A stretch of DNA of 64,000 bases. Source: a virus. A program made the position numbers and the translations under genes. Every line of letters begins with the position of its first letter. The first letter of the stretch is position 1. Shown here piece by piece: positions 11,794-43,165 of the stretch. The DNA lies in IMG/VR virus record IMGVR_UViG_3300007735_000794, positions 1-64,000 of that record, one strand, 5' to 3'. The notes beneath the pieces were generated by a model that made no database searches, had not been told where the DNA came from, and worked only from the letters and a program-made list of their open reading frames with translations.

Positions 11794-11827
11794 AACAAAC
11801 ATCTCATCAAGTGTAGGAAATCACACA

Positions 11828-12202: not shown

Positions 12203-12203
12203 C

Positions 12204-12437
12204 ATGAATGTCTGGGTGCTGTGTGAATGTCGTAAATGCTACATCGACTTCAAGGTGGAAATTCCGCCTGATGTCGAAAATTCTCTTGTCGGTGAACAAA
12301 TTAATCTCCACAGCGGATTTTCTGAATCGTATGGGATGACGACGTGTCCGAATGGTCATGCATCGCCCGCAGAATACTCGATTCATAGCGGGGGAACTGA
12401 GGACGATGTTTTTCCCGCGGGTCAGTGGAAAGCATAA
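12204..12437 (+). CDS. small Cys/His (zinc-ribbon-like) protein
   Basis: CRKC...CPNGH. Confidence 0.65.
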   Translation: MNVWVLCECRKCYIDFKVEIPPDVENSLVGEQINLHSGFSESYGMTTCPNGHASPAEYSIHSGGTEDDVFPAGQWKA

Positions 12438-12934
12438 CTTCACAAATGATCAAGAATAATACTAATCCCACGCTTAGCATGCTGATTCAAGAACATGCAG
12501 GCGTAGACGATTTCATGGCACATCTCGTCATTCAGGTGTGCTTGTCTTTTGCAACAGTGCTTATTTATGCTTCAACGCGCCGTCTTCCTGACGATATCGG
12601 GTTGATTATTACTGCAGCTTTTCATGTGATTATTACGCTATTTTTTGTTTTTGTCTTTGTCCACCATCTCATCGTGAAATGTAATGACACACGAATGAAG
12701 CTTGCAAGAATAGGTGCACTGAAAATTCAGCCGAATTCTGACTTGCTAATCTCAGTCGATAATTTTGTTTATACAGCAAGAGTTGAAGATGTGATGTATC
12801 TAAATGGATCGATTTATATTCACGTATCAAACATGATGCATGACTTTCTCCCGACTTCTTGGAGAAACGGTTTTTTGCGTTATGATGATGTCGATAATAT
12901 TGTGCAGGTTGTAAATGATTTTCAAACAAAGTGA
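12425..12934 (+). CDS. membrane protein
   Basis: Two TM helices; start uncertain. Confidence 0.65.
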   Translation: MESITSQMIKNNTNPTLSMLIQEHAGVDDFMAHLVIQVCLSFATVLIYASTRRLPDDIGLIITAAFHVIITLFFVFVFVHHLIVKCNDTRMKLARIGALKIQPNSDLLISVDNFVYTARVEDVMYLNGSIYIHVSNMMHDFLPTSWRNGFLRYDDVDNIVQVVNDFQTK

Positions 12935-13124
12935 TTTGATTCTTCGTAGAATCGATTTGAAATCACAAAATGTATACATTGACATCGTGTTAAGCGTGCG
13001 GAATGAATATGAATTGCTGGAAGTTGCTTATATAAAAAATGATAATTGGATTGTCGATATGCATGATGTCGACTACATTACTGCGCGCGTTGTTGAAATT
13101 GTTCACCCAGATGAGGATGACTAA
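12915..13124 (+). CDS. small protein, paralog of 15266 and 15472
   Basis: DLILRR..DIV..Y....VVEIVH pattern. Confidence 0.7.
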   Translation: MIFKQSDLILRRIDLKSQNVYIDIVLSVRNEYELLEVAYIKNDNWIVDMHDVDYITARVVEIVHPDEDD

Positions 13125-13296
13125 CGTGGAAGTGGGGGAGCTATATGAGCTTGGTCTCGGTGGAATTTACTATTTGATTATCGCAATGAACGAAGAAACT
13201 GCGGAGGCGATGAGGTATGACACACAAGGACACGTTGATCATGTCATCGATCGTAATGCTATATTTACAATACTTTGTAAAATACACGTCAAATAA
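13117..13296 (+). CDS. small KOW/SH3-like protein
   Basis: VEVGELYEL. Confidence 0.55.
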   Translation: MTNVEVGELYELGLGGIYYLIIAMNEETAEAMRYDTQGHVDHVIDRNAIFTILCKIHVK

Positions 13297-13305
13297 GATG
13301 CCGCA

Positions 13306-13572
13306 ATGAAGAAAGATCAAATCGTTCAAGTAGCACAGATTTCATACGGCGGCGCTGAAATGTTTAAACCGGGCACATTGCTCCATCTACGATGGGTATC
13401 TGGTAATGGGAGTAGATTTGCAATTTACATTGAACATGTGCTACTCGATGGTTTCACGTATGTAAAGATGTATGAATGTGAAAACAGACATAACAAAATT
13501 AACTTCATCATTTCCACATATTCAGAATCATATGTGATCAGACAAACCATTGAATATTTTGAAGCGACATGA
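13306..13572 (+). CDS. small KOW/SH3-like protein
   Basis: FKPGTLLHL. Confidence 0.55.
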   Translation: MKKDQIVQVAQISYGGAEMFKPGTLLHLRWVSGNGSRFAIYIEHVLLDGFTYVKMYECENRHNKINFIISTYSESYVIRQTIEYFEAT

Positions 13573-13763
13573 ATTCAGCATATGAACCCGCGGTTGATGA
13601 TGTGATTCTCTTGCGATACTCATCGGGTATTGTTCGCATTGCGAAAATTATTCGCATAGAATCAAGAGTCAATACACTCGAATATAACAAAGCATTAGAA
13701 CAATGGTGTCAGTGTGTGTGGAGTCATAACTACATCAAAAATGGCTTTGTTGAAAAGCTTTGA
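13569..13763 (+). CDS. small KOW/SH3-like protein
   Basis: PAVDDVILL..IAKIIRI. Confidence 0.55.
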   Translation: MNSAYEPAVDDVILLRYSSGIVRIAKIIRIESRVNTLEYNKALEQWCQCVWSHNYIKNGFVEKL

Positions 13764-13790
13764 ACAAACGTAGATTGCTTATCATTTACT

Positions 13791-13820
13791 GCGTGCGCAA
13801 ATTAATTCGCGTTGTATAAT
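13791..13820 (+). promoter_or_regulatory. early-type promoter (GTGCGC-N16-TATAAT)
   Basis: gcGTGCGC 13793-13798, TATAAT 13815-13820. Confidence 0.75.
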
Positions 13821-13847
13821 CGTATTACAGAAAAGGTATTTCGAACA

Positions 13848-14054
13848 ATGACTGTCAAAGACCTCATCGAAAAGCTGAAGACGTTTCCGCCCGACTATGA
13901 AGTCATCACGCTTGATGCTGATGGGCGTGAAGAGTCGGGTGTTGTGAATGCAGTCTTAGGCAAGATTCTTGAAATCGAAGTGGGTGAAGACTCCTTCGTT
14001 CAGGATGAGCCGAGTGATGAAGAAATGGGCTGCGTCGCAATCTACACTTTCTAG
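13848..14054 (+). CDS. small phage protein (MTVKDLIEKL..PPDYEV)
   Basis: AAGG SD; paralogous pattern with 1816. Confidence 0.75.
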   Translation: MTVKDLIEKLKTFPPDYEVITLDADGREESGVVNAVLGKILEIEVGEDSFVQDEPSDEEMGCVAIYTF

Positions 14055-14070
14055 TCGCAGAGAGATCGCA

Positions 14071-14301
14071 ATGAAACAGCTCATCAATCAAATCGCAGCA
14101 CAGATTGTCAAGTGGGCAGTCATGCGCATCAGCAATCATCCGAGGCAGCATGTCTTGCGTATCTGTAAAGATCATCACTTTGCATTGATTCGCGGTGAAA
14201 CTGTATATGTTGTCGGGAAAACAGACGACAGTCTTCTTGTCAGGTGCTGGTTTCCCAAGCTTCAAGTAGAAATCAATCTCAATCCCGCAAGCTTTGAGTG
14301 A
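14071..14301 (+). CDS. hypothetical protein
   Basis: ATG 14071 in 13969..14301 frame. Confidence 0.6.
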   Translation: MKQLINQIAAQIVKWAVMRISNHPRQHVLRICKDHHFALIRGETVYVVGKTDDSLLVRCWFPKLQVEINLNPASFE

Positions 14302-14310
14302 GGCATCAAT

Positions 14311-14583
14311 ATGAAGTTCAATGCATTCGCAATCTTCTCGCAAAGCAAAGGCTTCTATCACGCTGGGTCAATGTCAGACTACGACGGCGACTATCGAGTC
14401 CACGAATGGTCTGTCAAAGATGATGTTGACGGCATCATCGACTATTACGCCACGTCTGACGCAGCAAATGATGCGCTGAATGTGATGAAGCAAGAATACA
14501 AAAACACCTGCACATCTTGTCCTGAAGACGCATGTGTCGTCGCAATCGAAATCATGATTAAGCGCACAACTGCGGGGATGTAG
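14311..14583 (+). CDS. hypothetical protein
   Basis: GAGG SD. Confidence 0.7.
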   Translation: MKFNAFAIFSQSKGFYHAGSMSDYDGDYRVHEWSVKDDVDGIIDYYATSDAANDALNVMKQEYKNTCTSCPEDACVVAIEIMIKRTTAGM

Positions 14584-14589
14584 ACAAAA

Positions 14590-14775
14590 ATGAACAACAA
14601 CGACATGTACAGCTTCTACTTCCAAGACACGTTCGTGCGCGTCGAATGGTGGGATCATCCTGAAAATCATGCAGGCCCGTGGCGGTCTGCATATGATGCG
14701 TTGAATGCATTCTACAGAACTGGTATGGGGTCAGAACCCGCAGATGCATGCTACGTTCTGTTGACTGAATCGTAA
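14590..14775 (+). CDS. hypothetical protein
   Basis: Tiling. Confidence 0.6.
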   Translation: MNNNDMYSFYFQDTFVRVEWWDHPENHAGPWRSAYDALNAFYRTGMGSEPADACYVLLTES

Positions 14776-14804
14776 GCTGTTGCAATTCGTGCAAGATTGA
14801 TTGT

Positions 14805-15059
14805 ATGAAACAAGCGCTGAACAAACACAACGTCAGCGTTGGTGAGCTTGTTTGTTTGTGTGAAATGCATGGCAAAGAAAAATTTCGCTATTTTATTTTG
14901 ATTTTGGCAACGACAAATGATTCTGTTGAAGCTTTTGACTTTGAACTACAAGCGCCATGCTGGCTCTATTACGAAACAATCAACGAGTTCTTTGACTACA
15001 AGATAAGCAAATGTCGACAAAGGCAAACGGAGAAAACAAAAAATGAACACAAAATTTGA
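14805..15059 (+). CDS. small KOW/SH3-like protein
   Basis: VSVGELVCL..YFILIL. Confidence 0.6.
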   Translation: MKQALNKHNVSVGELVCLCEMHGKEKFRYFILILATTNDSVEAFDFELQAPCWLYYETINEFFDYKISKCRQRQTEKTKNEHKI

Positions 15060-15264
15060 CAATGTAAAGATCGACCAACTCACGGAAAGTGAGCGAATTG
15101 AGCTTTTGTGCAAGATCGAAGAACTTGTTGCTGATATGCCTTCGCTTACAGTTGACGCGCCCGGGCATATATTCGACGAGTATGCATGCTGTGGGGGTGC
15201 TACGAATCACGGACATGACAAAAATTGTTCTATCGGTCAATTGCGAAAGATCTTTGGCTACTAA
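15043..15264 (+). CDS. small Cys/His protein
   Basis: GGAG SD; CCG...GHDKNC. Confidence 0.65.
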   Translation: MNTKFDNVKIDQLTESERIELLCKIEELVADMPSLTVDAPGHIFDEYACCGGATNHGHDKNCSIGQLRKIFGY

Positions 15265-15265
15265 A

Positions 15266-15475
15266 GTGAAGTTCCAAATCGGCGACCTCCTGATACGAAG
15301 GCAACGCCCGGACGGTCCATTAATGAAAGATATTGTCGTAGAAATCGACAATGTTTATCGTGATGTTCGATTGTTGCATAACCGTCACAGCTACACTTGC
15401 GTTGAAGATTATAGTCACGAGTACCTTGTAGAAACTGTCATTGAAATCATTCACATAGACGAGTTTCATAAATGA
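15266..15475 (+). CDS. small KOW-like protein, paralog of 12915/15472
   Basis: FQIGDLLIRR..DIV..EYLVETVIEIIH. Confidence 0.7.
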   Translation: MKFQIGDLLIRRQRPDGPLMKDIVVEIDNVYRDVRLLHNRHSYTCVEDYSHEYLVETVIEIIHIDEFHK

Positions 15476-15711
15476 AATTGAAATCAGTATCTATCAACAG
15501 ATATGACTTGCTGATTCGACGCCCTTCATATTCAAAGAACACGCTCTTTGACGTCGTCATGACAATTCACGAACATGACATTATAACTGTAATGTCCATG
15601 CAGAACGGCAGTTCGTGGTACAATTCGTATACAGTGGAATATATTGTTTCGACAATTGTTGAAATCGTTCACGCAGATTCTTCAATGTGTAAAGCGCAAA
15701 GGGAGGAATGA
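15472..15711 (+). CDS. small KOW-like protein, paralog of 12915/15266
   Basis: YDLLIRR..DVV..EYIVSTIVEIVH. Confidence 0.7.
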   Translation: MKLKSVSINRYDLLIRRPSYSKNTLFDVVMTIHEHDIITVMSMQNGSSWYNSYTVEYIVSTIVEIVHADSSMCKAQREE

Positions 15712-15947
15712 TGTCGCAGTTCAATAACATCGAGCATGTCAATGCACTTCGTGAAAGTGCGAGAAGTGCTGCTGAAGCTCGGAAAGCAGCATGGTCGCAG
15801 ATGGAATCAACTCATGGCGATGACAATGTCGCTTTTGCCGTAGCATACAAGAAGTATTGTGAAGCACGAGAAAAGTGTGAGCAAATCGCTGAGAAATGGC
15901 ACAATGCAATGATTGAGCACAGCGAATCGCGTCTTCGCAATATCTGA
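15708..15947 (+). CDS. small helical protein
   Basis: GGAGG SD. Confidence 0.7.
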   Translation: MMSQFNNIEHVNALRESARSAAEARKAAWSQMESTHGDDNVAFAVAYKKYCEAREKCEQIAEKWHNAMIEHSESRLRNI

Positions 15948-15994
15948 GCAGAACAATCGAATGATCACAATTCACAGTGCTGAATGACAGCGTA

Positions 15995-16023
15995 ACGTGC
16001 GCGAACTTCGCGCTGTGTATAAT
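15995..16023 (+). promoter_or_regulatory. early-type promoter (GTGCGC-N15-TATAAT)
   Basis: acGTGCGC 15997-16002, TATAAT 16018-16023. Confidence 0.65.
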
Positions 16024-16079
16024 AAAGATGCGTGGAAAATCACGCAACACCAAAGCCTCAACGTGGCGGACAAGTCTCA

Positions 16080-16256
16080 ATGATCGTCGTCACTTACCGA
16101 AATCGGAAAGAACGTGTAAAGACGATTCGTCGTTGCGACAACATGTCTTCACAAACATGGCTTTGGTGTCATCTCGAACTCGAGAGTGGTGAAGAAGTCG
16201 TGGGCTTTTTCAACGTTGATGAAATCGTGCAGCACAACAATGAAATCAATCGCTGA
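16080..16256 (+). CDS. hypothetical protein
   Basis: After promoter; start uncertain. Confidence 0.55.
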   Translation: MIVVTYRNRKERVKTIRRCDNMSSQTWLWCHLELESGEEVVGFFNVDEIVQHNNEINR

Positions 16257-19986: not shown

Positions 19987-20232
19987 ATGACTTCGATGAA
20001 GTGCACGAAGTGCCACGTTGAGATGCAGTTGGGTCTCGCAATGATGCCCGTCTTGGGCAATTCGAATGCAAAGCCGCAGCTTGGGCAATGCATGTGGCCC
20101 GTTGGTGCAGCACTGTCGAACAACTGCCTCAAGTGCCCGCAGTGTGGTCACACTGTCGCATGGGCAGGGGAAGCGCAAGTGATGGTGGGCGATCCTCACT
20201 TGACGGTCAACGTGGGCGTTGCACAGAACTGA
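19987..20232 (+). CDS. zinc-ribbon protein
   Basis: MKCTKCHVEM...KCPQCGH; GAGG SD. Confidence 0.7.
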   Translation: MTSMKCTKCHVEMQLGLAMMPVLGNSNAKPQLGQCMWPVGAALSNNCLKCPQCGHTVAWAGEAQVMVGDPHLTVNVGVAQN

Positions 20233-20685
20233 AGATCTGCACGACAGCAAAGGGCGTGGGAGCTTAGAGATAAGTTGCCGCGCTTTTTGTTCACTTGAGC
20301 CTCGGGCTTCTCACACAGCACTGCACACTCTGCTCGTTGCAGAAAAATGCGACTTCCTAACAACTTCTACATCAGACGCTCGCGTGTCGCAGTGAAGACT
20401 GATGTCTCAACGTTTCAAGACACGCGGACGGGAAGCTCACGCGCAATTGAACATCGCGTCGCGCACGCGACAGACTCGACTTCACAGCTCTGCGTTGCCC
20501 TGCCCACACGTCAGTTCGACGACGTCAGAGCGCTGACGCAGCAGCACGCACGTCAGAGCGCGCAGATGTTCAAATCCGTTCTGCTGTGCGCAAGCTGCTG
20601 AAGGGTCACTTGAGACCCAACACTCACCTTGCGCACAGCAGAACGGGGGAGGCTTTCGCCTCCCCCGCCCATTCACCCGCCGTCC

Positions 20686-21249
20686 CTAGCTACGGCGACC
20701 CTTCTTCTTCTCGACCTGCACGGGTTCCTCGGCCACGGGCGCCTCGGGCTCTTCCACCACCGTCTCGGCGTGCACCTCGACGGGTTCCTCCACGGTCTCC
20801 GCGGGCACGTCTTCCCCGGTGGCGGGCTGCACCTCGGCGACCTCGCCCGTGGCCTCCTCGGCGGTGTTGGTCACCTCCTCGGTGGCACCCTCGGGCGGCG
20901 CCGCCGCCTCCACCACCGGCTCCTCCACCTGCACGACGGGGGCGATCGGCTGACCGTTGACGAGGATGACCGGCTTGTCCGTGTTGGTGGACCCACCGTG
21001 GCTCTTCGTCTCGGGGCACGGGTAGCCGGCCTCGCGGAGCGCCTTCTTGCACGCCCCACCGATCGCCACCTTTTCCCCCTGGCCGAACTGGGCACGCGTG
21101 TCATCGTGGACCTTGAGCAGCCAACGCCCGCCCCAGTTGAAGGGGGAAGCCGTGAAGGGCTTGCCGTCGCACGTCCCGGAGGCGGACTGCTTGTTGTTCT
21201 TGGCGTCGGTCACGTCGAGGGCGGTGATCTTGATATCGAATCGGGACAT
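20686..21249 (-). CDS. hypothetical protein with long Glu/Val/Pro-rich acidic tail; very high GC3
   Basis: GGAGAG SD before ATG 21249; codons nearly all G/C-ending; own promoter. Confidence 0.85.
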   Translation of the reverse strand: MSRFDIKITALDVTDAKNNKQSASGTCDGKPFTASPFNWGGRWLLKVHDDTRAQFGQGEKVAIGGACKKALREAGYPCPETKSHGGSTNTDKPVILVNGQPIAPVVQVEEPVVEAAAPPEGATEEVTNTAEEATGEVAEVQPATGEDVPAETVEEPVEVHAETVVEEPEAPVAEEPVQVEKKKGRRS

Positions 21250-21385
21250 GATCTCTCCCACTTGTTCGGCACTTGTTGCCGATTGTTGCTAGACACCCGG
21301 GAGGGTGGGAATAAGGGTGGCGGGGATTTGACCCGCCCGGGGAGGATTCCCCTCTTAATCCATTATTCCTCTGGATTATACCCAG

Positions 21386-21415
21386 ATTATATCTTTGAGT
21401 TTTTGGTTCACACGT
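21386..21415 (-). promoter_or_regulatory. early-type promoter (GTGTGA-N16-TATAAT) for the 21249 gene
   Basis: + strand ATTATA 21386-21391, TCACAC 21408-21413. Confidence 0.7.
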
Positions 21416-21481
21416 CGATGGAGATGGGAAGTTTTGTGCTGCGAAAATGCGCTGACGCTCGCCGCGCTTGAAGCTCACATG

Positions 21482-21544
21482 AAGCACTTGACACCCACTT
21501 CACGCTGACGCTGAGGAGAAAGCACTTGACAGACACTTCACGCT
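21482..21544 (+). repeat. 25-bp imperfect direct repeat containing TTGACA
   Basis: AAGCACTTGACAcccACTTCACGCT / AAGCACTTGACAgacACTTCACGCT, 38-bp period. Confidence 0.75.
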
Positions 21545-21923
21545 CCTCATGAACTTGACGTTCCACAAATGTCCGCGGCAGACACACGTCGCCTCGCTCA
21601 TTGTCGGGCTGAAGTGTGAAGTGCTGCACACGCTGCGCGTTGCGACTCCGAGCGCGGCGAGGTGCGGGCTGATGCAGCTTGACATGAAGCGCACGCTTGA
21701 GACGCTGTCGTTTGACTGTGAAGCAGTGTAGGGGCACGTTGCGCTGCTCAGCGTCTGAGATGCAGTGCTGCTCGATAGACACGTCAGACCTCCCATTGCG
21801 CAGCTGTGCTGCGTCTATGCTGCTACGCACGCTGATGTCGCAGTCGTGCGTCAAACAGCGCACAGGGCACACGAACTGAATCGTGAACCCGTGCACAGTG
21901 ACAGCTCCGCTGCTGCCAAATAG

Positions 21924-21953
21924 ATTATAACATGCAGTTTCTGTTGCGCACGC
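21924..21953 (-). promoter_or_regulatory. early-type promoter (GTGCGC-N16-TATAAT), leftward
   Basis: + strand ATTATA 21924-21929, GCGCAC 21946-21951. Confidence 0.7.
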
Positions 21954-22047
21954 TGCCACAACCGGTGCGCAGCGCAGAGAACAATCGAAGCGTCACGCAG
22001 ATGATGCGTGTCTGCTGCTGCAGCTGACGTAGCCGCCGCCCTGTCCC

Positions 22048-24995: not shown

Positions 24996-25655
24996 ATGAA
25001 CATCACTTCACAACAACTTCGGCAAATGATTCGTGAAGCAGTCACGCACGACGATAACAATGAAATGCTCGATGATGATATTGCAGAATTGATTTATCAA
25101 TTTGAAGATGAAACGAAAGAATGTGTACGGTTTAGTGACATAAATGAATCTGGAATGCTTGCATTAAAGATGATAAGAAAACTCGCAAATGTGGGTGACT
25201 ATATAAAATTTATTGAATGGAATAACAAAAGATGGTCTTTTGACAAACCGTTTAATGACGTCTCACATAATTCATTGCTTGCTGCATTTTTTGAAGCGAA
25301 TGAACATATCACAGATAATGATAATCAAATGTTTGAAAAACTAAATAAATTGTTTGGCGAGCTAAAGTCACAGTTTGAAACTCACAAACAAGCAAAAAAG
25401 ATTTGCAACATTTCTATGAAAATTATTGATATTATACACCAGCGCTTTGGAAACATATATCATACAGACTTGCTAAATGCTTCATTTGCATATCATTGCA
25501 GCAATATGCGTCATTTTTCGCCATCTAATGCTGAGATTGTGCCTCTTTTTGTCAAAACAGTAATTCTTTATAGCACAAATGAAAATCATGCAGAGTTATT
25601 ATATCGTGTTCGAAGATTTATCGATGACATTAATTTAGACGCAGACGAAGATTAA
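24996..25655 (+). CDS. leader-family protein
   Basis: MNITSQQLRQMIREA; ESGMLALKMIRKLA. Confidence 0.8.
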   Translation: MNITSQQLRQMIREAVTHDDNNEMLDDDIAELIYQFEDETKECVRFSDINESGMLALKMIRKLANVGDYIKFIEWNNKRWSFDKPFNDVSHNSLLAAFFEANEHITDNDNQMFEKLNKLFGELKSQFETHKQAKKICNISMKIIDIIHQRFGNIYHTDLLNASFAYHCSNMRHFSPSNAEIVPLFVKTVILYSTNENHAELLYRVRRFIDDINLDADED

Positions 25656-26041
25656 CTCTTGTCGTTATATTTGTAGTCTAAATAAAATAGAGTACTTTTT
25701 GGCATAGACATCGGTTGAACTTTTACAATATCATGAATAAATAATGCTGAGTTTGCTCTTTGTATTTTTGGAAATACGAATTTTTGTGGCCTCGTTGATT
25801 TCCCACGCGTAAAGATTTGTGTTTCGTATATCGTGTGTATGCGTTCATCAATAAACACTTCCCAGTTTGGGAAGTTATTACTTGTCGCAATTTTAATGAT
25901 GGGCATGCATAGTTTTGGTGCTTCCCATTCGTGTTCAAGCCACACCTCATAAATTTCGCCCGCGACTATTTGTCGTTCTTCGTCTTTCAAAACTTTAACT
26001 GCGCTCTTAATCATTTTCATTTTTCTCTTTGCGAGAAACAT
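25652..26041 (-). CDS. hypothetical protein (IVAGEIYEV, KOW-like)
   Basis: Fills gap antisense; no leader. Confidence 0.6.
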   Translation of the reverse strand: MFLAKRKMKMIKSAVKVLKDEERQIVAGEIYEVWLEHEWEAPKLCMPIIKIATSNNFPNWEVFIDERIHTIYETQIFTRGKSTRPQKFVFPKIQRANSALFIHDIVKVQPMSMPKSTLFYLDYKYNDKS

Positions 26042-32308: not shown

Positions 32309-33471
32309 ATGCTAATTGAAAGCAAAGAACTAAGACGTTTAATTTGTGAATCGATTCAAGCTGAGATGATTATCGAACTTTTTGCGCCCTTTGACCGGCG
32401 TTTTTTTGATTCGCTACATTCAAAAAAAATTAGTAGACAAAAGCTTGAAGATTTTGAATTTGCTCTCAAAGGTGCGAATTCATTTCTTAGCAAGGAAGGT
32501 GAGGATATTCATCCAAAACAAAAAGAAAGTTTTGTCTATAATGTCTTGTACGAATCACATCATCCAAGCTCGAGAATTATTGCAGACATGCTCGGCGCAT
32601 ATGCACGAGGCATATCATTTGACGAAATAATACAAAAAACATTCGAATCTGGTCATCATTTTGCAAGTTTTTTTAAAGACGCAGAAAACATAAAAAAAAA
32701 GTAAATGAAGCAAAACTCTCTCCGCTTTACACGTGCGAAGACATTAAAAATATTGTCAAAGATCGGCAAGAAATTGCAGATGACGTCGCATTTGTTATAG
32801 AGCCGATTATCGAAATTGAAAAATACAAATCATATTGTTATAATAATCCAACACTCATCGCATCAGATGAAGAAATAAAATATTACGAAGATTTACAAAA
32901 AGAAAAAAATTTATCTGTTAAAGTTGCTGCTTCGCTCATTTGGAATTCATTAAATCATTCATACATCTACTATGATCATGTGCTTATTGATGTGATTGTT
33001 CGTGAATTTTTGGCACATGCTGGAGTAATGCCTGGTTACTTACGACATGCGACAACATGTGATATAGTCATTGAAATTGAACAATTACGAGACGCAGAAT
33101 CAGAGCAACAATTGCGTGAAAATACAAGCATCACAAATGTCATGCTTGACAATGAAAAAATAGAATTTGCTGCGACAGTTGCAGAATGCTTTGATGATTA
33201 TCGTTTTATCCCAATTTTTAAGCTCGACATTTTTAGCAGTGAGTACAAAGAATTTATTAATGAACTCACACTTGGATGCAAACAATATTTGAATTTGCTT
33301 GGAATCGAACAATCAATTGACAATATAAACATTTTATTGTCTTTAAATGACAAAATCAGAAATACAATACAGACAAATTGTTCTATCTTTTTCGATGTTG
33401 TGAAGTCGTTTATGCAATCAAAAAGTATAAACGACGCATTATTTAGTGCAAAATTTAAATTGCAATTCTAG
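32309..33471 (+). CDS. leader-family polyprotein split by a -1 frameshift at A9 / A_AAA_AAG (32692-32701)
   Basis: 0-frame stops at 32704; -1 frame open 32701-33471 with no ATG/GTG/TTG before 32980, and carries family core LSVKVAASLI. Confidence 0.75.
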
Positions 33472-33655
33472 TCCACAATTGTGAATATTTTTGAATGATT
33501 GTAAGCGCAAGCGATTTTGCAGATTCACAATCGCTTGTTTGAAGAATAACGTTCACAGAATTCTTAAGATAATCAGAAACAATTGTCTTTTGTTCTAGCT
33601 TCGCATTCTCATATTGTTTAAGGCGATTTTCAAGCCACTGGAAGTCGTTAGACAT
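33455..33655 (-). CDS. small hypothetical protein
   Basis: AGGG SD; TGTAAA-N16-TATTAT upstream. Confidence 0.65.
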   Translation of the reverse strand: MSNDFQWLENRLKQYENAKLEQKTIVSDYLKNSVNVILQTSDCESAKSLALTIIQKYSQLWTRIAI

Positions 33656-33723
33656 TTAACACCCTATTGTTATAATAATTTGTGAATCGATCATTTACAA
33701 GAGATTAGCGAATATTTATTGTT

Positions 33724-34584
33724 ATGTTATTGTCAAAGAATCAACTTCGTAAAATAATTTGTGAAGCGTATGAATTGAATAAAAGAGCACCTGATGGTTA
33801 TCTTGCTTTTAACGCAGATGAAATTGATATTGTCAAAAATGCAATGGAAAATTATCAAAATGACAAATTATATCAAATTCAGCAGCTTTTGCAAAATAAC
33901 AATGACGAAGAATTTAAATTTGAATGGAAAGAGTTCGAATTCGCAATGAAAGTTGTTCATACAATCATAGATAAAAAGGCGGGAACAAACAAAGAAACTT
34001 GTAAACGATTTGAAAAGCTAATTAGATTAGTCGATCCAGATTTGAAATTCCAAAATTTTTGGAATCTTGTCGGTGCAAAATATTATTATGATATTGAAAA
34101 TGAGACTGCACTCGACATTATGTATGGGTATGATATGCAGTCATCATATAGCTTTCCAAATCAAGATCCTGACGCAATTCATGAGGCTTTAGGAATGAAC
34201 ACAATCAAATCAAAATCATTAAGACACATACGCGAATCATTGAGCGACATGTATAAACGTGTAAGTGATGTAGAAACAAATGGATATTTTGCTAATTTCG
34301 CGCGCGAGTTTTTAGCGAAATATGATGATATGTTTAATGATTATGAACAATTTACAGAAGAAGACAAATTACAGCTACGTATATACTTGAGTGTATTTGC
34401 GCAAGAAATTAAAGATGCAGAGAGCAATTGGGACAGATTAGAACAAATAAATGCACTCATACAGATTTTTATCGACGCAAATTTTAAGACGCCTGCTGCA
34501 TTCGCACACATGGTCATGGGTGTTAAGCGAAAAGATTACACAGAATTTGATGATTTTGTTAATCTATCGGATAAAGTTAAATGA
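33724..34584 (+). CDS. leader-family protein (probably two domains)
   Basis: MLLSKNQLRKIICEA; EFEFAMKVV; internal LRHIRES. Confidence 0.8.
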   Translation: MLLSKNQLRKIICEAYELNKRAPDGYLAFNADEIDIVKNAMENYQNDKLYQIQQLLQNNNDEEFKFEWKEFEFAMKVVHTIIDKKAGTNKETCKRFEKLIRLVDPDLKFQNFWNLVGAKYYYDIENETALDIMYGYDMQSSYSFPNQDPDAIHEALGMNTIKSKSLRHIRESLSDMYKRVSDVETNGYFANFAREFLAKYDDMFNDYEQFTEEDKLQLRIYLSVFAQEIKDAESNWDRLEQINALIQIFIDANFKTPAAFAHMVMGVKRKDYTEFDDFVNLSDKVK

Positions 34585-36677
34585 GCCTAAATCTTCAACA
34601 AGCGATTCGCGAGATTTTGTCAAACAAAAATCATTTGTATGAAAGTACATTAGAAGCGAAAAAAGAAATCGCAGCGTATATCAACGACTCAGTCATTTTT
34701 GACATTATGAAAAAAAATAAAGATGCAAATTACGATGATTTACTTCGCGTTACGTCATCAGAAAAAGAAGATTTATTTGTTACATGCAAAATTATAGCAG
34801 CGCTTATAAAAGAGTTTTTTGAAGAAAAATCTCTTCTTGATGATGGAAATTCTATATTTGTCTTTGTTGAGTCTGTATTCTACCTTACAGGTATCGAACA
34901 GAATTATTCGATATCAGCTTTTTATTATCTTATCGTAGATTTTTACGATGAATTAAAATTGGGCAAGACGCGTTTTGTTGATAGAGAAAATAAAGTAAGC
35001 GCAGTGGAATATACGTTTGATTGTTACTTTGTAATAGAGAATGCTATGCTAAACGAGTCAGAAGATCTCGATGAAAAAGAACAGCTTACGACAGCAGAGG
35101 CATTGGATTTTATTAATGATTCAATCATAGCTGTCATTGCGTCAAGAGAAGACACGCGAGCAGGCGTAGATATTGATATTGATAACGAAATAGGCGATAA
35201 TGATTTTGACATTAACAAATTAATCAAAGTAACAAGCGCCGAAAAAGATGATTTATTTATAACTTGCAAAATTGCTTCACGTGTTTTCGATAAAAAGCTG
35301 TTTTTAAACAATTGTTGGGGTCTAGCTGCACTTTTTGGTAGAACACGTTACGCAACAACAGACCCGTTTATTTTGCTAATTTATGCATTTCATAAAGAAG
35401 AAGTGCACAAAAAACCATTTGTAGAAAAAACATTCAATGATTGGTTTGAAGTCGATGATGTCAACATTTTAACAGAATCGGTAGAAAATGATATTCGCGA
35501 CGAAGAAGAAATAAGAACAGAAATAGAAACTATTATTAACAACTCAATAATCAGAGACTTCGGAGAATATTCGAATGCAATTGAATGCGGTGTAGATACT
35601 GATTTTTTAACGCAACAAGAACAAGACGAAGTATTGATTACATGTAAGATTCTAGAACGAACGTTTAATGAACTCACAAGAATGAATGGTAAGTATTTCT
35701 GGGCTTGTGTGCATGATACGCTTAAAAATTTGGAAATTTTGAATTTAAGAAAAATACTTGACTGCATTCACTTGATACATCAGGGAAGGATTACAGAAGC
35801 CGAACACGATCTTTCATTTGATCTATTTGACAGATGTAGAAAAGAAAAATTAGATGAATCAAATGAAATGTTAAACACTAATGCAGAAGAGCTTACGCAT
35901 GAGATTGCTGAATTTATAAATTATTCTATCATTAAACAACTTTATGATGGGACAGTATACGAGATTACGCGCCGCAAACTTACAAATGACGAAGCTAGTG
36001 AATTGTTTGTTACTTGCAAGATTCTTTCAAAATTGTATAACGATTTGTATAACTTGGAACCAAAAAATTCTCACCGTGATTTCTGGGATGTTTCGTATTC
36101 ATCGCTTGCTTGTCTTGATTCGATTGCAAATAGACGAGAAATTTGTGAAGTTATTTATAAATGTTGGAATGGACATGAAGATTTTGCGAAAGAGTATATC
36201 AAGACGACAATTTTTGAAGTTCAAGTAGCACAAAAACTTGATGAAAGTGTAGATTACACTGAGCTTCGCAATAAATATGATGATGTAATAGACGAATGTG
36301 TAGCATTTATGAAAGACAGCGATCTTGATGTTCTCATGCACGAAATAACAAAAGGTGTAGATGAATTCCAAGAAAGATATGAAAGAATTAAGATTTCAAG
36401 AGCAAATGCATCAAAACTATACATCATATGCAAAATAATTTATTCATTTGCAAAAGACGCGTATATTCTACTTTATATGTTAGATCCCGACTTGGCAACA
36501 TCTGGCGGTTGCATCAAAGGAATGATTAATGCATATGTTTATAGAGAAAAAAAGTTCTTAGGTGATTCGACGCATCAAAGAAGTCTTAGTTATGATTTGC
36601 TTTTGAATCTCATCAATAAAATAGAAAGTTATAAATCACTCGAAGAATCAGAACTTTTTGAGGTAAAAGATGAGTAA
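34581..36677 (+). CDS. leader-family five-domain polyprotein
   Basis: Five (L/V)(F/L/Y)(V/I)(T/I)CKI cores separated by LNES, LTES, LDES, LDES. Confidence 0.85.
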   Translation: MSLNLQQAIREILSNKNHLYESTLEAKKEIAAYINDSVIFDIMKKNKDANYDDLLRVTSSEKEDLFVTCKIIAALIKEFFEEKSLLDDGNSIFVFVESVFYLTGIEQNYSISAFYYLIVDFYDELKLGKTRFVDRENKVSAVEYTFDCYFVIENAMLNESEDLDEKEQLTTAEALDFINDSIIAVIASREDTRAGVDIDIDNEIGDNDFDINKLIKVTSAEKDDLFITCKIASRVFDKKLFLNNCWGLAALFGRTRYATTDPFILLIYAFHKEEVHKKPFVEKTFNDWFEVDDVNILTESVENDIRDEEEIRTEIETIINNSIIRDFGEYSNAIECGVDTDFLTQQEQDEVLITCKILERTFNELTRMNGKYFWACVHDTLKNLEILNLRKILDCIHLIHQGRITEAEHDLSFDLFDRCRKEKLDESNEMLNTNAEELTHEIAEFINYSIIKQLYDGTVYEITRRKLTNDEASELFVTCKILSKLYNDLYNLEPKNSHRDFWDVSYSSLACLDSIANRREICEVIYKCWNGHEDFAKEYIKTTIFEVQVAQKLDESVDYTELRNKYDDVIDECVAFMKDSDLDVLMHEITKGVDEFQERYERIKISRANASKLYIICKIIYSFAKDAYILLYMLDPDLATSGGCIKGMINAYVYREKKFLGDSTHQRSLSYDLLLNLINKIESYKSLEESELFEVKDE

Positions 36678-38208
36678 ATATATCGAAAGCGCATCTGAAC
36701 GATATTTCGATCCAATTTTTGAAGAGCTCACAGAATTCGTTGAAGAGCTTGATTTAAAATCATTTGATAATGCGACTAAAATTACACGAAAGCAAGCAGA
36801 AGAGCTTGATTTTGCAATCAAAGTGATTGCAAAATTGACTCGTGAATTTTGGGAACATACTGTGGATAAAACTCCTGATTTATTTCCACCAATCGAGAGT
36901 TACTATTGGGCTTCTAAAACATCGTCTTATTATGCAAATTTGAGAATATTTTTTAGATTTTGCGGAATTGCAAATTCATCAGTTTTTGCTGGTTTAGTGT
37001 CATATTATCAAATGGGATATGACCACGACATCATTAAACATACTTGGAAGATCAAGGACGATACGAATCTTAATGAATCTCATGATAAAAATTTATTAGA
37101 ACAACAATATAATGATCTTGTAGATGAGCTTGTAACATACATAAGCTATTCATCTTTGGCAGAAATTATTCCATATGAAAATTTGCAACAAAATAAAATT
37201 ACACATGAACAAGCAAATGAAATATTTTATGTTTGCAAAGTAATTGCATATTACATGAATAAGATTTCTAGCGCTTTAAAAGATAGAAATCATTTAGAAA
37301 AAGTTGAAGTAGCTTCGCGCATAAGGAACATTTTACGTCAATGCGGGATAACAGATTTGCGACTCTTGACAATTTTTTCACGTGTTGTCGTAGCTGTCAT
37401 GAATAATCAAGATGCAGATTTAAAAACTGCATTTAATAACAATATTACACAAATCATTAATGAAGCTATACAGAAAAATAGCGGAGAATGCTGCCCAATA
37501 TGTGGTGCAGAAGAAAATGTGTCGTGTGAACATTATCCAACAACGAATGAGCAAGATGAGATTTTAAGCGCTGCATTTTATGCTTATCTAGAAGACGAAA
37601 CATCGACTGCTTGGGCAATAAAAATCGCAGCGTCTGTTGTTGATTTAAATTTGTATAGGCGCTATATAGATGAGCTATTCAAAGGTTACACAGAAATGAC
37701 GCCAGAAAAGCGAATGCTTCATTTTGTCGCAGGTGTAATTCGTGATGCAGTTGAATTTCATGATGAAAATGCATCATTTGCATATTCAACTTACATTAAG
37801 TTTGCAGATCGCATTATTGATTATTTGCAAAACAAAGGCACATTACATGAATTCATTTCTGAAGCGTTAATGATTGATGACATTGGTCAACATTCTGAAT
37901 TTATGTTGGCACAGCGTGCATTCATAAATGAAATCAAAGAAGTCATTGAGCAACTTGATCCATTTATATTTGCAAATGCACGTCATACTTCAAGAATCGA
38001 ATTAAGAAATGATTTTGATTTTGCGTTAAAACTTATCAATGCGATGTTTATAAAATTTTGTCAAGAAACATCAACAAAGTATGACTACAGTTTAATCTAT
38101 CGTGTTATAAGTTCGACGCAACTTTATTCTAGTAATTATGATGTGATAGAAGTAGCAGACAATATAGACGAAACGCGTCGCGGCACATTTAAATGGAATA
38201 ATACATAA
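36670..38208 (+). CDS. family four-domain polyprotein
   Basis: Cores DFAIKVI, FYVCKVI, AWAIKIA, DFALKLI; linkers LNES, INEA, ISEA. Confidence 0.85.
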   Translation: MSKYIESASERYFDPIFEELTEFVEELDLKSFDNATKITRKQAEELDFAIKVIAKLTREFWEHTVDKTPDLFPPIESYYWASKTSSYYANLRIFFRFCGIANSSVFAGLVSYYQMGYDHDIIKHTWKIKDDTNLNESHDKNLLEQQYNDLVDELVTYISYSSLAEIIPYENLQQNKITHEQANEIFYVCKVIAYYMNKISSALKDRNHLEKVEVASRIRNILRQCGITDLRLLTIFSRVVVAVMNNQDADLKTAFNNNITQIINEAIQKNSGECCPICGAEENVSCEHYPTTNEQDEILSAAFYAYLEDETSTAWAIKIAASVVDLNLYRRYIDELFKGYTEMTPEKRMLHFVAGVIRDAVEFHDENASFAYSTYIKFADRIIDYLQNKGTLHEFISEALMIDDIGQHSEFMLAQRAFINEIKEVIEQLDPFIFANARHTSRIELRNDFDFALKLINAMFIKFCQETSTKYDYSLIYRVISSTQLYSSNYDVIEVADNIDETRRGTFKWNNT

Positions 38209-39928: not shown

Positions 39929-41863
39929 TTAACCGATGATTTTTTGCCATGATTTAAGTAATTTGTTTTCTTTAAACAAATCGTTTAAATCATTATCAAT
40001 TTCTTGATCATTTGCACTTTGAACATTATCATTTAGCCCTAATATGCGTTTAGACTCGTCAGGAACAATACCGAGGAATTTGTTAACAGTGATTGCGTGT
40101 GTTAGCATTTGTCTAATTTTGCTATTTTTTGCAGATATGCCTATCGCGTCCATAAAAAGTTTAATTTTATATGGGAGTGTTCCGTAATTAAATATCAATT
40201 CTAGCATATGAGGTAACTTTTTATTTTCTGGCGCTTTGTCTGGATTTATGATATACAAGTTCGCAATCTTAAGCGAAACGTCGCGAGGCCATGATTTAAC
40301 AAATGCAGGATTGCTCAATGCTGCTTGGAATGATTCATTTGTTAAAACAAAATCCCAAAAGTTTCCGTTAAGTCCTGTTCCCATCGCGCTTGTGAATGAT
40401 TTTGAACACATGTCAAGCACGATTTCAACGGGTGTATTTGGGTTTGTAGAAATATTTTTTGCGAGCGATTGATAGTTTTTTTCTTTTGCATACTCATATG
40501 CAGCTTTAATTTCTTCAACATTGTCAGAAATTGACATATCGTATGCTTTTTGAACTTTTGCGTATGGACTTCCTAAGCTTATCATTAATGATTTTGTTTC
40601 TTCATCTTGATTATCTACTAATTTATTCCACGAAGATAACATCTTAAATATTGCATCTCCCGATGCTTTAACATTTTGAAAAAGTAAAAACACATTTTTT
40701 GCATTTTCTGGCCAGATTTTTATATCTGAGTTATCATTGAATATCGCAGCAAGCGTATAATCATTCAACTCTTCTTTGTCTGCATTAATTTTGATAAGTT
40801 CATTCAATACATTTGAATCTTGATTTGTAACTTGATAAGTGAGACGAGAAAGCGTCATAAATTTAGCAATGAATGCAGCACATTCTCTAGAGAATTTTAC
40901 ATTTGCAGATGTTGCATCTTTATAAATTCGAATAGCTTCCTCAGTTCTTTGCTGAGCGCTGAGTGTGACAAGCATTTCTTTCATTGCACCGAGATTATTT
41001 GCAGCCTTGATAGCATAATCTGCGGCGGGCGCAACGCCACCAATCGATTCAACTTTTTCGAAGATAATCTTCATAATCTCAGAATAATATTGACCCAAGA
41101 CGCGTTTGTGGTCTTCAGCTGTCATTCCTTTATTGTCTCTGTCAATCGTTGTTCCGCCATTACGTCCATCTATAAGCTTGCCGTCTTTAAAACCAATTGA
41201 CATATAATCAAATTTTCCGGCGGGGTCTGGATAAGGACGCGCGCCATCTTTGATAATATAGATTAATAGCTTGTCACCAGAGTTGTATGTGTAGAAAAGA
41301 TTTGATTGAGATGTATAGTTTGTACACCACGTTGTGTTAGGTGCCATTGTTATCGGATCATAGCCTGCAATTTCCATACTGTCTGCCATGTTGTGAGGCA
41401 GCCAAATGTTCCAAGGACCGACTTTTCCTATCAATTCTTTTGGGCCACCCTGCGAACCTGTCAGTGCAAGCCTTTGTTTTTTCTTTGATGCCAACGCCAT
41501 GATTGTAGTCATTTCATCGACTGTCATCTTTTGAAAATCTGCAGGATTATCCCACGATTTTTCTTTATTGAGCCCAGCATAGTATGCTGCGATATCTGTC
41601 TTAAACTGTTCGTTTGTTGCCCATTTTTGGCTAAGACCTGATGCTAATCCTTTGTATGATTTAACAATTCCAATGCAGTCCTCAATTGGATGAGTTTCTT
41701 TGATTGATTTTTCTTTTCCAAATCTCTTAATCAACCAAGAAATGCAAGGCGGATCAAGTTGCATAATCTGTGGCGCTTGAGCGCTGTATTTATCTGCCAG
41801 CTCTTTTTGGTCATCTTTAAATCCTTCAAGCAGCAATTCGGCAATAAATTGTTTTATATGCAT
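39929..41863 (-). CDS. large leader-bearing protein with WCT motif and LRV-like NPNTP repeat
   Basis: MHIKQFIAELLLEG; TTWCTN..NLFYTY; NPNTPVEI. Confidence 0.85.
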   Translation of the reverse strand: MHIKQFIAELLLEGFKDDQKELADKYSAQAPQIMQLDPPCISWLIKRFGKEKSIKETHPIEDCIGIVKSYKGLASGLSQKWATNEQFKTDIAAYYAGLNKEKSWDNPADFQKMTVDEMTTIMALASKKKQRLALTGSQGGPKELIGKVGPWNIWLPHNMADSMEIAGYDPITMAPNTTWCTNYTSQSNLFYTYNSGDKLLIYIIKDGARPYPDPAGKFDYMSIGFKDGKLIDGRNGGTTIDRDNKGMTAEDHKRVLGQYYSEIMKIIFEKVESIGGVAPAADYAIKAANNLGAMKEMLVTLSAQQRTEEAIRIYKDATSANVKFSRECAAFIAKFMTLSRLTYQVTNQDSNVLNELIKINADKEELNDYTLAAIFNDNSDIKIWPENAKNVFLLFQNVKASGDAIFKMLSSWNKLVDNQDEETKSLMISLGSPYAKVQKAYDMSISDNVEEIKAAYEYAKEKNYQSLAKNISTNPNTPVEIVLDMCSKSFTSAMGTGLNGNFWDFVLTNESFQAALSNPAFVKSWPRDVSLKIANLYIINPDKAPENKKLPHMLELIFNYGTLPYKIKLFMDAIGISAKNSKIRQMLTHAITVNKFLGIVPDESKRILGLNDNVQSANDQEIDNDLNDLFKENKLLKSWQKIIG

Positions 41864-42655: not shown

Positions 42656-43165
42656 TTAGAAAAATGTTTGCCTATTTTGGGGTTCAACATAGTCAAGCTT
42701 CAAAAATTCAAATACGGCATAATCGTCATAAAAATCAGAAATACATTCTTTCTTATCGTTTAAAATTTGATTTTTTGTATAACAATATCCCATTTCGCTA
42801 CACATACTTGCAATAAAAATATTGAATCCAGCCGGACCTGTGTAATTCATTGTCATTATTCCAAAATTTTCTTTTGTTGCAATAAAAATATCAATTTGAA
42901 CATCATCAATTGAAACGTAGTATGCAATTTTCCCAACTTGTTTTTTCAATTGAACGTTATCAAACCATGATTTAAAATCATCAAGATTTTTTGGCACTAT
43001 AACAATATCAACATCACCGCATGTTTGTCTTTGTCTGCGATATGACCCACATATTTCTAATTTTTCACATTGAGCATGAAGTCCCAACACTTTTAATTCT
43101 TCAACAATTTTTTCAACTTCTTTTCTTGATATTCTTCTGCTCTCACCAAAGACTTTGCCGCTCAT
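42656..43165 (-). CDS. polX: minimal X-family DNA polymerase (palm + thumb only)
   Basis: GSYRR..CGDVDIV; QIDIF; YTG...FN; YVEPQNR. Confidence 0.85.
   Translation of the reverse strand: MSGKVFGESRRISRKEVEKIVEELKVLGLHAQCEKLEICGSYRRQRQTCGDVDIVIVPKNLDDFKSWFDNVQLKKQVGKIAYYVSIDDVQIDIFIATKENFGIMTMNYTGPAGFNIFIASMCSEMGYCYTKNQILNDKKECISDFYDDYAVFEFLKLDYVEPQNRQTFF

Follow-up and report, generated by a model that had tools for sequence, protein, structure and literature searches.

A giant, uncultured T4-like phage from fresh water has a variable gene array with two adjacent open reading frames, here called ORFs A and B, that are predicted to encode chains of repeated domains joined by short motifs resembling the cleavage sites of a T4-type prohead protease. 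The question raised by this locus is whether such chains are carried into the phage head and cut there into separate proteins or have some other role. The window analyzed comprised the first 64,000 nucleotides of IMG/VR record IMGVR_UViG_3300007735_000794, and positions below refer to it; the whole record is 98 kb in length, with a completeness of 28% (CheckV). No match to either ORF was found in Pfam, including matches to peptidase domains, or in PHROG, and literature searches found no published description of such polyproteins.

Module composition of ORFs A and B

ORF A (34581-36677, 698 amino acids [aa]) contained five modules, and ORF B (36670-38208, 512 aa) contained four. A sequence-only reading of the window had proposed five domains with (T/I)CKI cores for the 698-aa ORF, and every motif on which that proposal was based was located. 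The TCKI/ICKI cores were found at aa 68, 228, 354, 478, and 616, and the motifs LYES, LNES, LTES, LDES, and LDES were found at nucleotides (nt) 34635, 35049, 35469, 35850, and 36237, respectively. ORF A also contained LEES at nt 36639, near the C terminus, and one extra ITEA at nt 35790, which lies inside module A3 and was the sole site away from a joint. The motifs of ORF B were LNES (nt 37069), INEA (nt 37456), and ISEA (nt 37855). The resulting features, with leave-one-out E values from profile searches, were as follows.

34581..34643, + strand: ORF A leader, aa 1 to 21, with candidate cut sites IRE-I (aa 9 to 11) and LYE-S (aa 19 to 21)
34644..35057, + strand: module A1, 138 aa, 16.1 kDa, pI 4.5, ending in LNE and followed by S (E = 9e-14)
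35058..35477, + strand: module A2, 140 aa, pI 4.4, ending in LTE and followed by S (E = 5e-7)
35478..35858, + strand: module A3, 127 aa, pI 4.6, ending in LDE and followed by S (E = 1e-7)
35859..36245, + strand: module A4 (the module that was modeled), 129 aa, pI 4.8, ending in LDE and followed by S (E = 2e-14)
36246..36677, + strand: module A5, 134 aa to LEE-S (nt 36639-36650) (E = 3e-6)
36660..36677, + strand: A/B boundary, with a GAGG ribosome-binding site and the ORF B ATG at 36670
36670..37077, + strand: module B1 with a putative 6-aa leader remnant, MSKYIE-S, ending in LNE and followed by S (E = 1e-5)
37078..37464, + strand: module B2, 129 aa, VCKV core, ending in INE and followed by A (E = 8e-8)
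37465..37863, + strand: module B3, 133 aa, with a divergent sequence and a Cys cluster at the N terminus (CCPICG...C.H), ending in ISE and followed by A
37864..38208, + strand: module B4, 114 aa and stop codon (E = 0.018; singles-only hidden Markov model [HMM], iE = 9e-4)

After the LEE-S of module A5, a 9-aa tail (SELFEVKDE) preceded the stop codon. Identity between modules was 10 to 33%. The modules of the two ORFs showed cross-detection, in that an HMM built from the A modules alone detected ORF B (E = 7e-7) and one built from the B modules alone detected ORF A (3e-7). Seven of the nine modules were recognized at E ≤ 1e-5 when left out of the profile; module B4 was marginal (0.018), and module B3 was not recognized (9.6). 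The tie of B3 to the family came solely via the metagenomic protein P0012, in which the third module, at the same position, was matched by the family profile. Searched against 1.84 billion representatives, this profile matched 16 proteins, 14 of which matched genes of this record in length; the other two were metagenome fragments (P0012 and P0016). Once the leader was removed, the homology of the modules to single-domain neighbors of 200 to 240 aa was only marginal.

Module A4 was predicted by AlphaFold to form a compact seven-helix bundle (pLDDT, 80.3; pTM, 0.75), in which helix 1 began at module residue 2 and the last nine residues (P9 to P1) had a pLDDT of 50. As modeled, the bundle is an orphan domain with no recognized fold, and no internal protein was named among the results of fold searches with the module. 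A two-module AF2 model was of low confidence overall (pLDDT, 50), with the lowest values (29) at both joints and a helix break at P1'. The predicted joint is a short, low-confidence hinge of one to three residues leading from the last helix of one module to the first helix of the next. The expectation from the sequence-only reading that AlphaFold would separate independent domains by flexible linkers thus held in part: confidence dipped at the joints between helical bundles, but no long flexible linker was predicted.

Joint motif, shared leader, and genomic context

All internal joints of ORFs A and B read [L/I]-x-E-[S/A]. Across nine joints (seven here and two in P0012), P3 was Leu or Ile (9/9), P1 was Glu (9/9), and P1' was Ser or Ala (9/9), while most flanking positions exceeded 2 bits of entropy and P11 was aromatic in 8/9. 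Outside ORFs A and B, the motif [LI]xE[SA] occurred at a density of 0.127 per 100 aa in the ORFs of this phage. ORF A contained 7 copies, against an expectation of 1.67 from shuffled sequences (P = 0.002); there were 3 copies in ORF B. Plain [LI]xE was not enriched and occurred at the level expected from composition, so that the signal is the four-residue motif placed at the joints. In MAFFT alignments, the joint motif shared columns with the leader end (LIRE-A/G) of single-domain neighbors, in agreement with the earlier proposal that the linkers match the end of the leader; the features in common are P3 Leu or Ile, P1 Glu, and a small P1' residue. The joint Glu was the sole column conserved at ≥90% among 21 aligned sequences and was more conserved than the family's core Lys.

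The N-terminal leader was shared by about 20 ORFs of the 23- to 45-kb region, lying on both strands and including proteins that otherwise seem unrelated, and 17 of the 22 proteins of this array had [LIVM]xE[SAG] among their first 30 residues. One member of 644 aa had >100 metagenomic homologs retaining the same leader, with no homolog found in isolated phages. The ORF A leader scored 17.6 with the leader position-specific scoring matrix (PSSM), versus a background 99.9th percentile of 3.9. The full-leader PSSM gave no score at the ORF A joints, which suggests that only the cut determinant has been retained there. Compared to T4 leader sequences (taken from AF158101), the array leader resembled the start of IPII and IPIII (MKTYQEFIAE-A) in length, in hydrophobic residues at P7, P4, and P3, in P1 Glu, and in P1' Ala.

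Upstream of ORF A, two further features were found.

33649..33676, + strand: sigma-70-like promoter, TAGACA-16-TATAAT with TG, preceding the three-gene operon 33724 / 34581 / 36670
33724..34584, + strand: first operon gene, encoding a 286-aa leader-bearing protein with an internal, nearly complete second leader

The promoter, identified by consensus match only, had 11/12 matches and an extended -10 element. Late-type boxes (TATAAATA) stand before three other leader-bearing units, and none was found on the + strand from 23 to 38 kb. A sigma-70-type extended -10 promoter, not a late box, before the A/B operon was counted against head cargo, for which late coexpression would be expected. The second leader of the first operon gene (MNTIKSKSLRHIRE-S; aa 158-172, nt 34195-34239) makes this ORF look like a fusion of two genes in which the whole leader of the downstream gene was kept, and its complete internal leader would represent an intermediate state of leader-to-joint decay.

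The start of ORF B overlapped the stop of ORF A by 8 nt (ATGAGTAA). ORF B is read in the +1 frame, where a stop codon at 36664-36666 ruled out an earlier start. Contigs from an independent study crossed the boundary without any difference, indicating that the arrangement is not an assembly error. P0012, the only ORF B ortholog found and one foreign to this record (35% identity), began with a full leader (MHKLRHIIRE) and kept both of its joints (LQE-A and INE-S); B-type chains thus appear to be leader-bearing genes in their own right, and the ORF B leader appears eroded here to MSKYIE. The earlier reading of ORF B as a split-off continuation was correct in that it has no full leader and overlaps the previous stop, but the leader of P0012 and the GAGG ribosome-binding site of ORF B's own argue that it is not simply that.

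Head genes were absent from the 98-kb record, in which no match to PF03420 (S77 prohead protease) was found. A 171-kb relative was collinear with this record over 29 ORFs and encoded, just beyond the position of this record's end, a T4-type terminase followed by a portal protein (1e-78) and an S77 protease (2.5e-25). The same cluster contained two small leader-bearing proteins, whose genes directly adjoin that for the S77 protease, and a major capsid protein of the gp23 type (2e-75), in which LRE-S occupies aa 59-61. This phage may be expected to encode an S77 protease as well, synteny with the relative being the one basis. By the same synteny, the array holding ORFs A and B lies tens of kilobases from the head-gene cluster, and array content was not conserved in the collinear relative.

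Proposed processing and competing explanations

The presence of a head-protease cutting motif at every joint suggests that capsid loading, followed by cutting into small proteins, is the probable fate of the chains. We give an even chance to the interpretation that ORFs A and B encode head cargo, targeted by the leader, from which the prohead protease makes nine acidic proteins of ~15 kDa. A similar scheme in the sequence-only reading, with release of separate proteins of ~100 to 150 aa, is supported in part by these results. Targeting, cleavage, release, packaging, and the role of the modules are what we infer from sequence. The short N-terminal leader, like the T4 capsid-targeting sequence, would dock the chain on the scaffolding core during prohead assembly, and a gp21-type (S77) prohead protease would cut after the Glu of L/I-x-E, removing the leader and cleaving every [L/I]-x-E-[S/A] joint. 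These cuts would free nine compact, acidic, all-helical proteins of 13 to 16 kDa inside the head, which may exit with the DNA at infection or make up an internal body; one leader would load five modules and so fix their stoichiometry. The chains probably originated when cargo genes with leaders fused or were duplicated, after which selection may have preserved no more of each internal leader than its cut site. Several observations count against this interpretation: the joint is as short as a hinge, the modules are acidic whereas T4 internal proteins are basic, and ORF B has no leader of working length and a noncanonical first site (YIE-S). Moreover, Ser followed by acidic residues is a typical helix N-cap, and conservation of the joint could therefore be partly structural.

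That last point is central to the unlikely alternative that the chains are uncleaved tandem-repeat proteins, full length and multidomain, packaged or not, in which the joint motif is a leader relic kept as a hinge or N-cap. The very short joint, and Ser or Ala followed by acidic residues at P1' to P3' directly where helix 1 begins at module residue 2, are in keeping with it, and since the modules are duplicates, the shared motif partly reflects common descent. N-capping nevertheless leaves an invariant P3 Leu or Ile and P1 Glu unexplained at 10 to 33% identity. The conserved positions are exactly those that define the gp21 site and coincide with the leader end in 17/22 array proteins, and the targeting part of the leader has decayed while the three cut-site positions have not. 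There is a smaller chance that the chains are not cargo but scaffold or core proteins like T4 gp22, gp67, and gp68, which would help build a large prohead core and be cut at L/I-x-E into pieces that are then expelled or stay behind as an inert internal structure, playing no part in the host cell. ORFs A and B resemble these T4 proteins in being helical and acidic with several gp21-type L/I-x-E sites (PMC9026906, PMC5694885), cutting of T4 core proteins at multiple sites and families of head-protein paralogs in giant phages are established (PMC5694885, PMC10052503), and the small leader-bearing proteins of the relative adjoin its protease gene. However, the modules are predicted to be compact globular bundles (pTM, 0.75) rather than extended coiled coils, [LI]xE[SA] occurs at boundaries except for the off-joint ITEA while plain [LI]xE stays at the level of composition, and the variable array lies far from the head-gene cluster, with content unlike that of the relative. 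T4 core proteins are broken down to short peptides that exit the head, whereas the sites here bound predicted compact 15-kDa domains, which suggests the release of intact folded products.

It is improbable that the locus is not a virion system at all, with the N-terminal helix acting in early or middle intracellular proteins as a different kind of signal or as an interaction motif and its likeness to capsid-targeting and protease sites coincidental. The sigma-70-type promoter before the operon, the lack of a Pfam or PHROG link to virion proteins, and the 644-aa leader-bearing protein with no homolog in isolated phages would fit this explanation. It is opposed by the fit of the leader to the T4 capsid-targeting sequence in length, register, P1, and P1', by the late-type boxes ahead of three other leader-bearing units, and by the T4-type head genes of the clade, including an S77 protease gene flanked by genes for small leader-bearing proteins.

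For chains of head cargo released by the prohead protease, a more tentative extension is that the leader cut site may act as a universal joint, by which neighboring cargo genes could fuse (leader to joint) or split (joint to leader) with function kept. Fusing and splitting would be harmless because the prohead protease would restore separate proteins inside the head. The array would then present a series comprising separate leader-bearing genes, the fusion in ORF 33724, the L-x-E-S joints of ORF A, and the eroded leader of ORF B. The outcome would be a load of fixed stoichiometry in which one orphan helical domain is present in nine diversified versions. That all modules are copies of one such domain suggests that a single binding or inhibitor scaffold has been diversified, and the load may be a collection of injected inhibitors that act on host defenses.

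Relation to known systems and significance

The closest parallels are the T4 internal proteins: IPI, IPII, IPIII, and Alt carry a capsid-targeting sequence and undergo gp21 processing, as relayed in papers citing Mullaney and Black 1996 (PMC9026906, PMC3012670), and gp21 cuts at L/I-X-E, plus a Glu-Ala bond in gp22 (PMC9026906). As in that system, a leader of 10 to 20 aa is common to differing proteins, with L/I-x-E at its end and a small residue next, and the genes occupy a variable locus of a T4-type phage. T4 cargo, in contrast, consists of single units with one leader cut (Alt also has a C-terminal cut [PMC5694885]), whereas here five or four modules carry the motif at every joint. The modules also differ from T4 internal proteins in being acidic and without detected sequence or fold relation to them.

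Phages phiKZ, 201phi2-1, and SPN3US, which use an S80 protease, are likewise giant phages with putative head-protein paralogs and several motifs per substrate, but their motif is S/A/G-x-E and the extra cuts fall in discarded propeptides (PMC5694885, PMC10052503). Here P3 was Leu or Ile, of T4 type (9/9 joints and the leaders), and cutting would part one mature repeat module from the next; assignment as an S80 substrate of the phiKZ/SPN3US type was rejected, with the small P3 residue missing at joints and leaders. Polyvalent proteins are also long and multimodular, with proposed packaging, delivery with DNA, and processing into parts (Iyer et al. 2017, PMC5512222), although they join different enzyme domains and their processing is proposed to be by an embedded peptidase domain, e.g., MPTase (PMC5512222). 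That assignment was rejected as well, the modules being copies of one family with no Pfam match and no embedded peptidase domain. RNA-virus polyproteins are single products cut at short repeated motifs into equimolar parts, and encapsulin cargo-loading peptides are short terminal peptides that send cargo inside a shell. Both are alike in working and have no evolutionary relation to this locus, where the protease would be a separate capsid-maturation enzyme in the prohead.

The lesson of T4 is that a 10-residue leader and one protease cut suffice for head loading and delivery to the host. If the proposed processing is true, each leader would load several proteins at set ratios, and cargo genes would be free to fuse and split. 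Such a mechanism would account for the way in which giant T4-like phages assemble large repertoires of packaged proteins and reshape them quickly. The leader together with [L/I]-x-E-small joints would provide a sequence rule to find injected proteins in metagenomes and a natural design for multicargo loading in T4-based delivery vectors.

Joints and modules of the two chains

Every motif that the sequence-only reading had placed in ORF A (34581-36677, 698 aa, modules A1 to A5) and ORF B (36670-38208, 512 aa, modules B1 to B4) was found at its position, and the five (T/I)CKI-core domains proposed for ORF A were present as five TCKI/ICKI cores. ORF A opens with MSLNLQQAIRE...LYE-S, a leader of the short N-terminal type common to about 20 neighboring genes (23-45 kb); its cores are separated by LNES, LTES, LDES, and LDES, and LEES lies nine residues ahead of the stop. 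The joints of ORF B are LNES, INEA, and ISEA. With P1 denoting the Glu ahead of the putative cut and P1' the residue after it, all nine internal joints examined (seven in ORFs A and B and two in P0012, a foreign ortholog of ORF B) have L/I at P3, E at P1, and S/A at P1'. The motif [LI]xE[SA] was infrequent elsewhere in the phage (0.127 per 100 aa) and enriched in ORF A (7 versus 1.67 expected from shuffles, P = 0.002), whereas plain [LI]xE occurred at the frequency expected from composition; the signal is thus specific, and it is located mainly at module boundaries. A scaffold-protein-like general enrichment of [LI]xE was rejected on the same frequency. Cutting at the joints is predicted to release products of 114-140 aa (13.4-16.1 kDa, pI 4.4-5.6). 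Module B3 begins (37465-37560) with an inserted N-terminal Cys cluster, CCPICG followed by C.H, that is absent from P0012, a foreign three-module ortholog of ORF B, and that may form a small metal-binding knuckle.

The proposed match between the joints and the end of the N-terminal leader was upheld, as the joint motif aligned to the same columns as the leader end (LIRE-A/G) of single genes in two independent alignments. Across the 21 sequences compared (mean column identity, 14%), the joint Glu was the sole column conserved at 90% or more. At the nine joints, most flanking positions had entropies of >2 bits, the exception being an aromatic P11 that is part of the last helix. P0012, 35% identical to ORF B, keeps both of its joints (LQE-A and INE-S) with S and A interchanged relative to ORF B. 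A whole-leader position-specific scoring matrix gave 16-28 on most true leaders and fell below threshold at all ORF A joints, where the targeting half of the leader is decayed and the three cut-site positions are kept. ORF 33724 (286 aa), the first gene of the A/B operon, carries a nearly complete second leader in midprotein, including its Met (MNTIKSKSLRHIRE-S, aa 158-172, nt 34195-34239), and looks like two cargo genes that fused recently or, alternatively, a gene with an internal start.

The fold of module A4 was predicted from the 21-sequence alignment; overlapping two-module segments, which merely tiled on identical parts, and a full-length alignment with single-domain genes, which was too messy, were left out. 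The model is a seven-helix bundle (pLDDT, 80.3; pTM, 0.75) with the conserved Lys in its long third helix; confidence drops to a pLDDT of 50 over P9-P1, and P3-P1 are nonhelical. A two-module A3-A4 model was weak overall (pLDDT, 50), with its two lowest blocks (29) at both joints and a helix break at P1'. This drop and break place the sites at predicted domain boundaries, outside folded cores; the joints are modeled as short hinges, not as long flexible linkers. No convincing match to A4 was found among solved or predicted viral structures: the best Foldseek E values were 0.37 (PDB) and 0.27 (BFVD), the top Z score in a wide VIA-align search (6.2) was under the level meaningful for helical bundles, and the ESM Atlas gave no usable match.

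ORF B starts within the last codons of ORF A (ATGAGTAA), in the +1 frame and preceded by a ribosome-binding site (GAGG). A longer ORF B is excluded by a stop in its frame at 36664-36666, two codons upstream of this start. The ORF A tail (..FEVKDE) and ORF B start (MSKYIE-S) together come close to a normal joint in length and shape (F-E-V-x5-L-x-E-S), but P0012 itself carries a complete leader, and the suggestion that ORF B is a split-off continuation of ORF A does not hold in simple form. The boundary therefore does not fix the direction of change and could be either a fusion in progress or a fission. An assembly or sequencing error was rejected, the boundary being the same in three assemblies and in an independent study. 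Fusion of A and B by a +1 ribosomal frameshift was dropped; the B-frame stop leaves only an AAA-G slip at 36666-36669, which nothing supports, and separate initiation of ORF B is the simpler reading given its own ribosome-binding site.

The module family and its reach

A profile hidden Markov model (HMM) built solely from the A modules matched ORF B (7e-7), and an HMM built solely from the B modules matched ORF A (3e-7) and a 131-aa ORF at 32309 (1e-7). The view that all nine domains form one family stood for seven modules (leave-one-out E ≤ 1e-5); B4 was marginal, and B3 was not recognized, its link to the family running solely through its positional ortholog, the third module of P0012, which the family profile matched. 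The upstream single-domain genes of 200-240 aa have the leader in common with the chains and beyond it match only marginally, across some 40 residues surrounding the helix of the conserved Lys; firm homology was dropped because the match is marginal without the leaders, and wider homology is unproven. An A9 run (32692-32700) closes ORF 32309, and beyond it the -1 frame stays free of stops over 264 codons, passing VNE-A, as far as 33471. The stretch 32309-33471 could be a third multimodule chain, frameshifted or slippage dependent; the -1-frame extension gave no match to the module HMMs.

Against 1.84 billion representatives, the family profile matched 16 proteins, of which 14 had the lengths of the record's own genes and two (P0012, on a 1655-nt contig, and P0016) were short Logan fragments. 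The module family is nearly private. Word-based searches for homologs of ORF A and of P0012 recovered nothing but the query, and P0012 was not found among viral contigs and metagenome contigs. Pfam and PHROGs gave no match for ORF A or B; the only matches among these and eight neighbors were the polX gene (Pfam) and ORF 43227 (PHROGs). The former encodes a 169-aa DNA polymerase beta (family X) palm and thumb protein (42656-43165, - strand) without a leader, among leader-bearing genes.

Leaders, promoters, and T4-type head genes

T4 IPII and IPIII start with MKTYQEFIAE-A, as read from the T4 genome. Loading requires no more than these ten residues, and the cleavage motif of gp21 is L/I-X-E, with a Glu-Ala bond in gp22 among the sites cut (PMC9026906). 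The leaders here (e.g., M.I.S.KLR.LIRE-A) are like those of IPII and IPIII in length, hydrophobic P7/P4/P3, P1, and P1'. A 644-aa protein (39929-41863, - strand) starts with MHIKQFIAE and has >190 metagenomic homologs, many with precomputed HEAT or LRV-repeat Pfam matches; tblastn against 50,697 isolated-phage records found no homolog. An N terminus with two successive L-x-E sites (..LR.LVES.LLEGFKDDQ) occurs in nearly all of the 120 homologs listed, which makes the leader a clade-wide feature.

Ahead of the A/B operon is a sigma-70-like promoter that is close to consensus and has an extended -10. Late-promoter boxes of the T4 type (TATAAATA) were located at 41896 and 43222 (both - strand) and at 44006 (+ strand), at distances of 26-57 nt from the three transcription units that they precede, all of which contain leader-bearing genes; the A/B operon has no such box. 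None was found on the + strand of the array at 23-38 kb, where TATAAT-type boxes occur instead.

The source record in IMG/VR (98 kb, with the window as its first 64 kb) is 28% complete (CheckV), which implies a whole genome of roughly 350 kb. Over 45.4-94.8 kb, 29 of its ORFs are strictly collinear with G001, a 171.5-kb viral contig that carries a T4-type head cluster directly past the collinear block:

Features of the G001 head cluster
T4-type large terminase
gp20 portal (E = 1e-78)
Peptidase_S77 prohead protease (G001 62731-63351; E = 2.5e-25)
Two small proteins bearing a leader of this type
gp23-type major capsid protein (E = 2e-75)

LRE-S occupies aa 59-61 of the G001 capsid protein, close to the position of propeptide removal in T4 gp23. 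Collinearity and this cluster indicate that the window's phage is a very divergent giant T4-like phage. The record ends short of the cluster position, and PF03420 had no match on it; we infer that a prohead protease gene lies beyond the 98 kb, at an expected distance of about 8-10 kb. Inside the array, an antisense 129-aa ORF (25652-26041, - strand) showed 47% identity over 36 aa (E = 1e-8) to the G001 capsid protein. G+C is 40-47% over positions 1-23000, where long ORFs are few and a single 2-kb bin (20001-22000) reaches 60%, and the remainder of the window has 31-36%, with a sharp break in composition and coding density near 22-24 kb.

Identical sequence was present in viral-metagenome runs and an independent metagenome study, and short identical pieces were present in lake and river metagenomes; being identical, these contigs are uninformative on selection. 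No RNA data were listed among runs carrying the sequence, and blastn against the 50,697 isolated-phage records gave no match.

Readings of the chains and the array

The most likely reading, about as probable as not, is that ORFs A and B encode homotypic protease-jointed capsid-cargo polyproteins, a variant of the T4 capsid-targeting sequence/gp21 scheme. Against it, the Ser and acidic residues opening each module also fit a helix N-cap, and we consider it unlikely that the chains are repeat proteins left uncleaved. The acidity of the modules is a further point against capsid cargo, T4 internal proteins, unlike them, not being acidic; a role as scaffold-like assembly proteins seems quite improbable. 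The sigma-70 promoter without a TATAAATA box also counts against the capsid-cargo reading, as does the unexplained loading of ORF B, and a function outside the virion is given very little credence.

No published description of protease-jointed cargo polyprotein chains was found in the literature searched. Unlike the A/B chains, polyvalent proteins combine different enzymes in one chain, which is proposed to be processed by an embedded peptidase (PMC5512222).

At the syntenic position, G001 likewise carries an array of genes with leaders (144956-171341 and 5590-16159; loci L008, L015, and L016). The content of that array is unrelated to that of the window's array except for the 644-aa protein, which suggests that the leader-gene array is a hyperplastic locus for cargo, comparable to the region of the T4 internal proteins.
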